From sequence record NC_008515.1: a DNA stretch of 64,000 nucleotides; one strand, written 5' to 3'. Shown piece after piece: positions 7,069 to 49,743 of this stretch (position 1 is the stretch's first letter; each line of letters opens with the position of its first letter). The translations under genes were made by a program, and so were the position numbers. This stretch comes from Escherichia phage RB32. The notes under the pieces are model-generated. The model did not search any database. It was given only the letters and a program-made list of their open reading frames with translations, and had not been told where the DNA came from.

Positions 7069-7608
7069 TTATCTCATTTCAATAAAATCTACGAGTTCGG
7101 CATAGGATTTACGGAACATTACTTGATGCCCACCAATGATAACTTGGTCATCTGGTACTTCGTATACAGCAAGATAAAATCCTTTCGAAGATAATTCTTC
7201 CCGCTCTTCTCGCGTGAACCATCTCATCATATCATACTCACTAGCGAAAGCAAAATGATAAAGAGCTATAAACCATCCTGGAATATGATATTCTACTCCA
7301 ACATAATCTTTCTTGAACTTAGTATTAATTACTATATTAGCGTTTTTAACTAATAGTTTATCTTCGTGTGGTAAAGGAATTCTTTTATTATTATCGCTAT
7401 GATGCATAAAATTAGGTCTGTCATAACCTACGTGTAATAGCCACTCTTCACTCCATGAATCTATTATACTCCTGTACGGCGTTATTTGAACACAAAGATT
7501 TCGACGTATTGTTATAGCATCTTCATAATCAAGAATACTAAACGATGATTCAACACGATAAATTTTCATTTTATTATCCTCAGTAGCTATGGTGTTATAA
7601 TACCACAA
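7069..7608 (-). CDS. hypothetical protein
   Basis: 179-aa ORF, 3-nt spacing to downstream gene, early promoter upstream. Confidence 0.55.
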   Translation of the reverse strand: MWYYNTIATEDNKMKIYRVESSFSILDYEDAITIRRNLCVQITPYRSIIDSWSEEWLLHVGYDRPNFMHHSDNNKRIPLPHEDKLLVKNANIVINTKFKKDYVGVEYHIPGWFIALYHFAFASEYDMMRWFTREEREELSSKGFYLAVYEVPDDQVIIGGHQVMFRKSYAELVDFIEMR

Positions 7609-8817: not shown

Positions 8818-10137
8818 TCATACATAAAACACATCATAACGACCACGGGTAACACCAACATAAAGAAGCTGCTGTGCTAGTTCAGCATCTGCATAATGAA
8901 TACAAGGTGTATAAATGAAAGCACGATCTACAGACATGCCCTGAGCTTTATGGAATGTTGACGCAGGAAGTGCTTTCACTTTACTGAACTGTGATTTAGC
9001 ATCCCAAAAATCACTCCACGGAGCTTTTCCGCCTTTGTTCCAATTTTTATAAGTTTCTGCCGTTTTACCTAAAAATAAATTAAACTTATATAGCTCTTCA
9101 TCAGATGAAATTATTTTAATCTTTTCACGATAATATTCATCATCGCCGTAAGTTTCTACTGTTAAATCCCAATGACGAATTAAGTATTCTCCAGAAACAC
9201 CACGAGCTTTAACAAAGGTTGATGTATACTCTGCTTCTATAATACGAACTAATTGTCCGTTATTAAAAATAATTTCTGACACAGGCTTTCCATCAATTTT
9301 ATATGTTTTAATTAATGGTTCCTGCATTACAATAATTTCACCGACAATAAAATCTTTATCAGTTTCAAAAATCTTTTTACGAATAATGCTATTTAACTTG
9401 TCAACAGATTTATTCGTAAATGCCATTACGCGATTTTCAAACAAATCATCTAGTGATTTGACGATTGAAAAATAATTTACCATAAAATCGCGTAAAGCGG
9501 TATCACCAGTAAATCCACGTACTCCATGCCCGTCAACAACTTTATCATAAATCCACTTACCATTACGAACATCAGTAGCTACATCAATAATAGGAGCATT
9601 ACTGCGTTTAACTTCAGTAAGTTCACACTGATAAAAATCTTTGTGTGTAAAGAATGGACTGATATAAGCAGTGTTTTCTCCTGGGTCAACAGGTCTGATT
9701 TGCTTATTATCACCTATTCCAATTATGGTACACCATGGCGGGATAGTTGAAAGCAGAATTTTAAATAGCTTTCTATCATACATTGACACTTCGTCGCAGA
9801 TTAATACCCTGCATTTAGCTAAATCTGGTACTTCCTTCTGTTCAAAAAGAACATTTTCTTCATATGTTACCGGGTTAATTTTAAGAATGCTGTGAATAGT
9901 ACTCTCTTCTTTCCCCGACAGTTTTGAAAGAATCTTTTTAGCTGCATGTGTAGGAGCTGCCAAAATGATACCAGTTTCGCCTGTTGATATTAAAGCTTCA
10001 ATGATGAACTTAGTAAGAGTAGTCTTACCAGTACCAGCAGGTCCATTAATAGTTACATGATGTTTCTTTTCTTTAATAGCCCTCATAACGATGTTAAAGG
10101 CATTTTTCTGGCCTTCTGTCAAATCATCAAATGTCAT
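8818..10137 (-). CDS. dda: Dda DNA helicase (SF1)
   Basis: 439-aa ORF, Walker A GPAGTGKTT; length equals T4 Dda. Confidence 0.9.
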   Translation of the reverse strand: MTFDDLTEGQKNAFNIVMRAIKEKKHHVTINGPAGTGKTTLTKFIIEALISTGETGIILAAPTHAAKKILSKLSGKEESTIHSILKINPVTYEENVLFEQKEVPDLAKCRVLICDEVSMYDRKLFKILLSTIPPWCTIIGIGDNKQIRPVDPGENTAYISPFFTHKDFYQCELTEVKRSNAPIIDVATDVRNGKWIYDKVVDGHGVRGFTGDTALRDFMVNYFSIVKSLDDLFENRVMAFTNKSVDKLNSIIRKKIFETDKDFIVGEIIVMQEPLIKTYKIDGKPVSEIIFNNGQLVRIIEAEYTSTFVKARGVSGEYLIRHWDLTVETYGDDEYYREKIKIISSDEELYKFNLFLGKTAETYKNWNKGGKAPWSDFWDAKSQFSKVKALPASTFHKAQGMSVDRAFIYTPCIHYADAELAQQLLYVGVTRGRYDVFYV

Positions 10138-12799: not shown

Positions 12800-13270
12800 C
12801 TAGCGATAAAAACCAAAATGACGATTAGCTTCAGCAATCTTTCTTTCTTCTTCGGACATTCTCCAGCGTAGTCCAACATCAAAATGAGCCCAGACCATCT
12901 TAACAAATGCATTTATATCTTTAATATCTTCAATAATGAATGTTTTACTTTTAAAAGGCTGACTCGCTAATTTAACTTTATCATCTTCAAACAGGTCAAA
13001 AAGACCATATTCGTGAGCTCTTTTATAGCCTTTAATAGTTAAAGCTTCAGAAGAAGAAAATGGTGAATCTGTATTCTGCAAAATATCTTCAGTATGCTTT
13101 ATAATTAGAATAATATTTTCTGGATATTTTCTTTCTTTTATATCTTTAATTAAAATATCCGGATTTTCTGCTAAAGGAATAATTAACGAGCAATTTTTAT
13201 CAAGTGTATTTACTGATTTACCTTCTTTAGACATAAATCCTATTGAATACAGTTTTGCTACTTCAATCAT
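12800..13270 (-). CDS. hypothetical protein (possibly mrh-region)
   Basis: 156-aa ORF. Confidence 0.55.
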
Positions 13271-13423: not shown

Positions 13424-13627
13424 TCACGATTTATCCCCATAGATGTCTCTCATCAATTTAAGCGCTGAGCGTTCTAGTTTCTTTTCTTTCTCAGCACTAA
13501 TCATTGATTTCATCCATTCTTCTGATTCGTTCTGCATTTCTTTATTTGCTTGTTCAACCCAACCATCGTCAATGTACATTGAGTTTGGTCTATTGAACCA
13601 TTCAAACATTTTCTTCAGAACTTTCAT
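13424..13627 (-). CDS. hypothetical small protein
   Basis: 67-aa ORF; its first 21 codons lie inside copy 1 of the 91-bp tandem repeat. Confidence 0.5.
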
Positions 13628-13745
13628 TTGTTTTACCTAAAACAACAGTAGGAGCATCGTCAATGTACATTGAGTTTGGTCTATTGAACCATTCAAACAT
13701 TTTCTTCAGAACTTTCATTTGTTTTACCTAAAACAACAGTAGGAG
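13564..13745. repeat. perfect tandem duplication, 2 x 91 bp
   Basis: 13564..13654 is identical to 13655..13745 (catcgtcaatgtacattgagtttggtctattgaacc...aacagtaggag). Confidence 0.85.
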
Positions 13746-14190
13746 CATCATCAAATTCATGAATTTTTAGCAAATTTGGATGTAAACTATTCCATACAGA
13801 AGAAATAAAGTATGATAACGCATCTTCACTCGCAATTATAAATTTGTTTCCTTTGTCTATTTTCCAGTTATATACTGAATCGTACGAATAAAAAGATAAG
13901 GGTTTATCATTATATTGTTCTGCGCTAACATTAATGTATTCGGATTTAGTAAATGCTTCAATTGCTCTAAATGGAATATTTGGTACAGTTTCAATAATAC
14001 CAATCTTTTTAAGTTTTATTTCAGCATCTTCTGGAACTGGCATTGAAACGAAATTTTCTACGAGATACATTGGGTCACAATAACCCTTATCAATCATTAC
14101 GGCTACAGTAATTGGAACATCTTTAGCAAACGACATGCTATTACTGCTAATATACATTTCAAACAAAATCGCTTCCATAATTTTCCTCAA
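13693..14190 (-). CDS. hypothetical protein
   Basis: 165-aa ORF; last 53 nt lie inside copy 2 of the 91-bp tandem repeat. Confidence 0.55.
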
Positions 14191-14796: not shown

Positions 14797-14810
14797 CATA
14801 AAATGAAAAA

Positions 14811-14830
14811 AGGAATCCCGGAGGATTCCT
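14811..14830 (-). terminator. hairpin after the soc stop (AGGAAUCC-UCCG-GGAUUCCU)
   Basis: plus strand aggaatcccggaggattcct followed by T-run on the transcript. Confidence 0.45.
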
Positions 14831-14838
14831 TAAATTAT

Positions 14839-24403: not shown

Positions 24404-24425
24404 ATCCGTATTAGTTGATAGTTGT

Positions 24426-24455
24426 ATAGTACCATGGAAGAACAGTCTTGTAAAC
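24426..24455 (-). promoter_or_regulatory. early promoter (-35 TTTACA, 17-bp spacer, -10 TACTAT) with conserved leader
   Basis: minus strand GTTTACAagactgttcttccatggTACTATacaactatcaact...ggagaatgaaATG. Confidence 0.45.
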
Positions 24456-49685: not shown

Positions 49686-49713
49686 TTTGTGTTCCTCCGT
49701 AGTTGATAGTTGT

Positions 49714-49743
49714 ATAGTACCACAGAGGAACAGTCTTGTAAAC
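49714..49743 (-). promoter_or_regulatory. early promoter (-35 TTTACA, -10 TACTAT) with conserved leader
   Basis: minus strand GTTTACAagactgttcctctgtggTACTATacaactatcaact. Confidence 0.45.

Follow-up and report, generated by a model that had tools for sequence, protein, structure and literature searches.

Chimeric genes that arise when a tandem duplication covers parts of two adjacent genes have been described mainly in Drosophila and bacteria. In bacteriophage T4, tandem amplifications of the dmd-tifA region carry 6-10 bp of microhomology at their boundaries and retain one copy of it between the repeats, and earlier T4 work reported microhomologies of 2-10 bp (bioRxiv 10.1101/2022.04.14.488369). 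Very short homologies are also used in T4 end joining, for which a minihomology of 3-4 nt is enough, whereas classical homologous recombination needs approximately 50-150 nt (PMC8262927). The genes mrh and srh lie within the dispensable Delta12 region, and their influence on late transcription is restricted to 42 °C or to rpoH mutants (PMC6070864). Both are non-essential early genes.

The locus described here lies across the junction of mrh and srh in the T4-like Escherichia phage RB32 (Tequatrovirus RB32; NC_008515.1), in a window of 64,000 nt, by which we mean the whole stretch of DNA that was analysed. Two copies of a 91-bp unit stand next to each other: they are the same at 91 of 91 bases, run head-to-tail and abut at 13654/13655 without a spacer (Table 1). 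TRF reported a single array at 13564-13754 with a period of 91, 2.1 copies and a score of 375, the sole long-period repeat across the 64 kb. These results bear out the first-pass annotation, which had reported a perfect 91-bp tandem duplication across a gene junction. A perfect repeat of 91 nt cannot have originated by chance within 64 kb. We consider it very probable that this is a genuine tandem duplication that arose in the RB32/RB33 lineage from 9-nt direct repeats, with a 38-codon mini-ORF as its neutral by-product.

Table 1. Positions of the repeat copies, direct repeats, genes and ribosome-binding sites at the mrh-srh junction of RB32 (numbered from the first letter of the window)
Feature	Position	Strand	Description
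mrh, 161 aa, intact	13693..14178	-	Pfam T4_MRH E=5e-43; PHROG 'Mrh transcription modulator under heat shock' E=9e-62
mrh-side ancestral direct repeat	13746..13754	-	gene strand TTGATGATG (Phe-Asp-Asp-Ala context); + strand CATCATCAA
Upstream (mrh-proximal) 91-bp copy	13655..13745	-	real mrh stop; for the chimeric ORF, start codon, Shine-Dalgarno and first 21 codons
Shine-Dalgarno AGGT of the chimeric ORF	13726..13729	-	7 nt upstream of ATG; identical to that of srh
Chimeric ORF, 38 codons + stop, Srh(1-21)::Mrh(145-161)	13602..13718	-	annotated RB32ORF024c / RB33_025 'hypothetical protein'
Direct repeat at the novel junction	13655..13663	-	gene strand TTGACGATG, then CTCC of the next unit; putative crossover inside exact GATG
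Downstream (srh-proximal) 91-bp copy	13564..13654	-	Mrh-tail codons and stop that end the chimeric ORF; real srh start, Shine-Dalgarno and first 21 codons
Shine-Dalgarno AGGT of srh	13635..13638	-	7 nt upstream of the srh ATG; duplicate of that of the chimeric ORF
srh-side direct repeat	13564..13572	-	gene strand TTGACGATG (Ile-Asp-Asp-Gly context)
srh, 67 aa, intact	13424..13627	-	PHROG 'decoy of host sigma32' E=6e-41

Each 91-nt unit includes the mrh stop with the 17 codons before it and, from srh, the Shine-Dalgarno sequence, the start codon (ATG) and codons 1-21; mrh, the 38-codon ORF and srh are all encoded on the minus strand. In single-copy relatives the two genes overlap by 26 nt in different frames, as the first-pass annotation had supposed for a single-copy arrangement. 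After the duplication, mrh terminates normally in the upstream copy and srh begins normally in the downstream copy. The upstream gene and its tail had been recognized correctly in that annotation, but the length of 165 aa given for it results from starting at a TTG farther upstream; in the annotation, mrh begins with the ATG at 14178 and has 161 aa.

A 9-nt direct repeat (gene strand TTGAYGATG) flanks the unit, and its two copies match at 8 of 9 positions in RB32. On that strand TTGATGATG (Mrh ...F-D-D-A...) precedes the unit and TTGACGATG (Srh ...I-D-D-G...) closes it, and in six relatives a perfect TTGATGATG stands at both ends. The identity at period 91 runs for 95 nt, which leaves 4 nt of exact homology beyond the unit (CATC on the plus strand, GATG on the gene strand); with one mismatch allowed, the homology beyond the unit is 8 of 9 nt. 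The novel junction reads ...AACAGTAGGAG / CATCGTCAATG..., with the slash marking the boundary, and lies within the stretch ...GTAGGAGCATCGTCAATG.... Among simulated arbitrary 91-bp duplications in the RB32 window, a sliding homology of at least 4 nt occurred at 2.3% of positions and a flanking 9-mer matching at 8 of 9 nt at 0.18%. A short direct repeat is thus present at both ends of the unit in the ancestral arrangement, and one copy of it is kept at the novel junction. This combination of a flanking repeat and a retained junction copy is, as far as the DNA itself can tell, the signature of T4 microhomology-mediated tandem duplication.

Between the two parents lies the third reading frame. 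It opens at the srh start of the upstream copy, crosses the junction and ends with the mrh tail that the downstream copy supplies, sharing its first 21 residues with Srh and its last 17 with Mrh: an open, in-frame fusion of a parental 5' part to a parental 3' part, with both parents intact. The 38-codon chimera that had been proposed from the ATG at 13718 was recovered in full, with its 21 + 17 residues and a stop at 13602-13604. With either neighbour, mrh or srh, it shares an overlap of 26 nt, so that both native overlap geometries are reproduced. Its initiation region is an exact copy of that of srh, and the AGGT falls in a hairpin loop; the hairpin (UUGUUUU/AAAACAA) is weak. The gene block has an early-promoter-like site on one side (14795-14767) and a terminator-like hairpin on the other (12573-12539). 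The chimeric ORF is probably translated, since it has the exact srh ribosome-binding site, would be carried on the same early polycistronic transcript and keeps the 26-nt overlaps. Any mrh-to-srh translational coupling would run through it.

We also considered the repeat as a functional element in its own right, such as iterons, a regulatory pair or a structured RNA, and rejected this reading: the unit is single copy in the other listed relatives, no promoter- or terminator-like site was found within the 91 bp, and the folding of both initiation regions was no better than that of shuffles (z-scores of +1.5 and +0.3).

A further hairpin, with a perfect and GC-rich 9-bp stem, is located at 14810-14831 between soc and mrh.2, just upstream of the strong early-promoter-like site at 14795-14767 (minus strand). 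It was flagged as terminator-like on both strands; a clear T-rich tail is present in the minus-strand reading only, the plus-strand tail being A-rich.

Comparison with related genomes, which the first-pass annotation had proposed for the single-copy state, gave a direct answer: phage PD112 matches RB32 at every base of approximately 210 nt across the site, apart from a gap of exactly 91 bp, and the other listed relatives are single copy. In a search with 1.8 kb, all 39 top-ranked records listed besides RB33 span about 91 bp less than the query. A 551-bp search gave the same picture in 55 full-length matches sampled evenly down the ranking (97.8-87.5% identity): all those listed besides RB33 were about 91 bp shorter. 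A 36-nt junction probe was covered to at least 80% in RB33 alone among 385 matching records. Nine other contigs with an identical Mrh (from NCBI, ENA and Logan) have srh directly overlapping mrh and one unit copy each, and an exact scan for the 22-nt junction in IMG/VR, JGI metagenome and GTDB genome contigs did not find it. On these searches, about 500 other Tequatrovirus records are single copy and the duplication occurs in one lineage only.

Around the site, RB32 shares 91-98% identity with the nearest loci that have a single copy. Within the dual-coding unit itself, these relatives show just 0-2 mismatches; because of this near-invariance, dating the event from the identity of the two copies was ruled out. 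The first-pass annotation had taken the perfect identity to imply either a very recent event or an assembly artefact, and copy identity is no proof of the former. The age of the event is bounded by its distribution instead: it is younger than the split from the single-copy relatives and older than the split of RB32 and RB33. Since the junction is in both phages and the relatives are single copy, the event falls within the RB32/RB33 lineage, before the two stocks parted.

The second part of that inference, an assembly artefact, can be set against the RB33 record. The region matches RB33 (KM607001.1) at 100%. Over 63,881 aligned bases, the RB32 window and RB33 differ by one substitution (at 9905) and by a 119-bp tandem duplication in RB33 alone; given these differences, the two are separate sequences. 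The exact 38-aa product is on record from RB32 (ABI94848.1 and YP_802966.1, 'hypothetical protein RB32ORF024c') and from RB33 (AIT74663.1, 'RB33_025'), and because this sequence is impossible without the novel junction, the junction itself is on record in both. The RB32 accession was cited as early as 2009, and the RB33 annotation was carried over from RB32. The RB33 sequence was assembled de novo with Velvet from PE250 MiSeq (Illumina) reads at 3,355x (PMC4293622). RB32 and RB33 may be one isolate, perhaps so given their near-identical sequences; they would then represent two sequencing determinations and probably a single biological event.

An assembly or finishing artefact would mean that two overlapping contig ends were joined untrimmed, doubling 91 bp of a genome that is truly single copy. 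The RB33 procedure offers some room for this: Velvet (k=51-63) was followed by 'gap filling by iterative mapping' in Geneious, which is able to create false tandem repeats, and the RB33 paper is compatible with RB32 having guided post-assembly editing (PMC4293622). The RB33 record also holds a second perfect tandem repeat, of 119 bp, which has no microhomology, splits a conserved gene and is absent in RB32, and the 91-bp junction is found in no other public collection. Such an artefact would be expected in one assembly alone, however, and the same junction product occurs both in RB32, deposited years before by another group, and in the de novo assembly of RB33. Moreover, 91 does not equal k-1 for any k used, the breakpoints fall within an 8/9 direct repeat of the kind expected in so few arbitrary joins (0.18%), and PE250 reads at this depth are able to cover the full 182 bp. 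The shared chimeric product and the position of the breakpoints effectively exclude the artefact that the first-pass annotation had raised, and we regard it as extremely improbable. Judged from these records, the 91-bp duplication is genuine.

The 119-bp feature of RB33 is an observation of its own. The perfect tandem copies are at 7287-7405 and 7406-7524 of KM607001.1, and the RB32 window has a single copy at 7287-7405. The junction has no microhomology, and the added length causes a frameshift (3x39+2). The conserved 166-aa gene RB32ORF011c (ABI94835.1) is thereby split into RB33_011 and RB33_012; it is the homologue of T4p013, a 19.7-kDa protein of the motB-dexA region, and is intact in the RB32 window at 7069-7569, with RB32 as the only source of an exact match to that protein. 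The duplication explains essentially all of the published 99.93% similarity between RB32 and RB33, and it could be either a stock-specific mutation or an artefact of the RB33 assembly. At position 9905, the sole substitution in 63.9 kb, RB32 has T and RB33 has G, and residue 78 of the Dda helicase is accordingly E in the former and A in the latter; a Dda with E78 is known from RB32 records only (ABI94839.1).

The sequence arrangement suggests a simple path to the present locus. Recombination or template switching would have taken place between two copies of TTGAYGATG 91 bp apart, with breakpoints in mrh (3' end, left) and in srh (5' end, right). The resulting tandem copy would have restored a complete mrh, ending at the stop of the upstream copy, and a complete srh, beginning at the start of the downstream copy. 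Left between the restored genes would be the srh start region fused to the mrh tail, with a product of 38 aa.

Which molecular route was taken is a narrower question. Replication slippage, in which the nascent strand switches template between the 9-nt repeats, stands against UvsX-dependent minihomology recombination or an unequal exchange between genome copies. A distance of 91 bp and a short imperfect repeat suit slippage as well as they suit recombination, and sequence alone cannot separate the routes. Experimental minihomology events in T4 have, however, been ascribed to recombination and break repair (PMC8262927), and slippage is to us a possible but rather doubtful route. The duplication between short direct repeats, by whichever of these routes, is the reading that we carry forward.

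We then considered whether selection has kept the repeat. Srh(1-21) joined to the Mrh tail might be a functional micro-protein, for example one that modulates the interplay of Srh, Mrh and sigma-32, or the mini-cistron might tune the translation of Srh. The mini-ORF is an in-frame fusion behind a ribosome-binding site identical to that of srh, and the 26-nt overlap geometry is kept on both sides. The repeat also persists as the consensus in both stocks even though 91 bp is within the range of T4 homologous recombination (a minimum of approximately 50-150 nt; PMC8262927), an observation that leans weakly against neutrality. The distribution argues the other way, with one lineage only among about 500 sequenced relatives, and so does the peptide. 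In single-sequence AlphaFold2 predictions, Srh has a short helix at residues 3-11, then a loop, and at 21-63 a long helix predicted with confidence, while the chimera, with a mean pLDDT of 61, has a short helix alone and is mostly disordered; in these models the breakpoint strips the entire long helix from the chimera. No family match was found for the chimeric peptide past the Srh N-terminus in Pfam or PHROG. The reading frame across the junction is likewise no sign of selection, because the direct repeat encodes Asp-Asp in mrh and srh alike, with one codon phase for the two, and the fusion is in frame automatically.

On this evidence, retention of the duplication by selection, through either a functional peptide or an effect on Srh translation, appears improbable. 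The stronger proposal, that the 38-codon ORF is a newborn, translated chimeric micro-protein kept by selection in RB32/RB33, acting either through Srh/Mrh modulation of sigma-32 or as an overlapping-cistron relay that sets Srh translation, is in our view very improbable. If it were true, the locus would offer a natural snapshot of a gene being born in a T4-like phage, through microhomology-mediated duplication over the junction of two overlapping genes. The chimeric peptide is most likely a neutral by-product that is tolerated in a dispensable region; we infer neutrality from the features above.

Several observations concern the genes around the repeat. Srh showed no significant sequence similarity to sigma-32 or to any solved structure (best E=1.4), so the label 'decoy of sigma32' rests on the older literature alone. 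The gene modA.3 (12800-13270, minus strand, 156 aa) and mrh (13693-14178, minus strand, 161 aa) both match Pfam T4_MRH, with E=2e-37 and E=5e-43. Judged by these matches, the two are paralogues, two genes apart, from an older whole-gene duplication in the same neighbourhood. In public records, modA.x genes (homologues of modA.2-modA.4) carry the label 'molybdenum ABC transporter periplasmic molybdenum-binding protein', and several E. coli, Salmonella and Shigella entries name Srh 'S-ribosylhomocysteinase'; both labels are name-driven annotation errors. Elsewhere in the window, a 44-bp dispersed repeat, 93% identical between its two copies, lies in two intergenic regions at 24412-24455 and 49700-49743 (gene strand GTTTACAAGACTGTTC...TGGTACTATAC). 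It looks less like a mobile element than like the conserved early-promoter sequence of T4.

In a literature search on RB32 and duplication we found no paper that describes the origin of the repeat or of the chimeric ORF, which has presumably been in GenBank as a hypothetical protein since the RB32 deposit. RB32ORF024c / RB33_025 would be better annotated as a duplication-derived chimera than as an independent 'hypothetical protein'. The locus is of value as a natural example of short-homology tandem duplication, a process so far documented in T4 mainly under laboratory selection. It also illustrates how a duplication over the junction of two overlapping genes can come at no cost to either gene and yet create a new, ready-to-translate hybrid frame. 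In practical terms, the 91-bp repeat is a handy PCR marker of the RB32/RB33 lineage and a gauge of direct-repeat stability at the lower limit of the homology that T4 recombination needs. It reveals no new kind of system.

Taken together, the features that can be read from sequence all agree with a T4-type microhomology-mediated tandem duplication, and the locus compares with the described systems as follows. Like the T4 amplifications of dmd-tifA, the Hp17 amplifications of genes 16-18 and the rII duplications, the RB32 repeat is head-to-tail, ends at a short direct repeat, keeps one copy of it at the junction and lies in a dispensable region. Unlike them, it is natural and, as far as known, unselected, has two copies and amplifies no whole gene; its unit is 91 bp, against hundreds to thousands of bp, and its homology is an exact 4 nt (8/9 with one mismatch), against a perfect 6-10 bp. 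As in chimeric genes formed by tandem duplication of adjacent genes, the 5' part of the downstream gene is joined to the 3' part of the upstream gene and both parents remain intact, but here the two parents share 26 nt, read in different frames, and the product is just 38 aa, known here from sequence. The microhomology-bounded T4 39-56 / Delta12 deletions (Mosig 1998; Wu 2021) occur in the same neighbourhood and have very short repeats as endpoints; in contrast to these, the RB32 duplication is the reciprocal outcome, in which the interval is gained and not lost.
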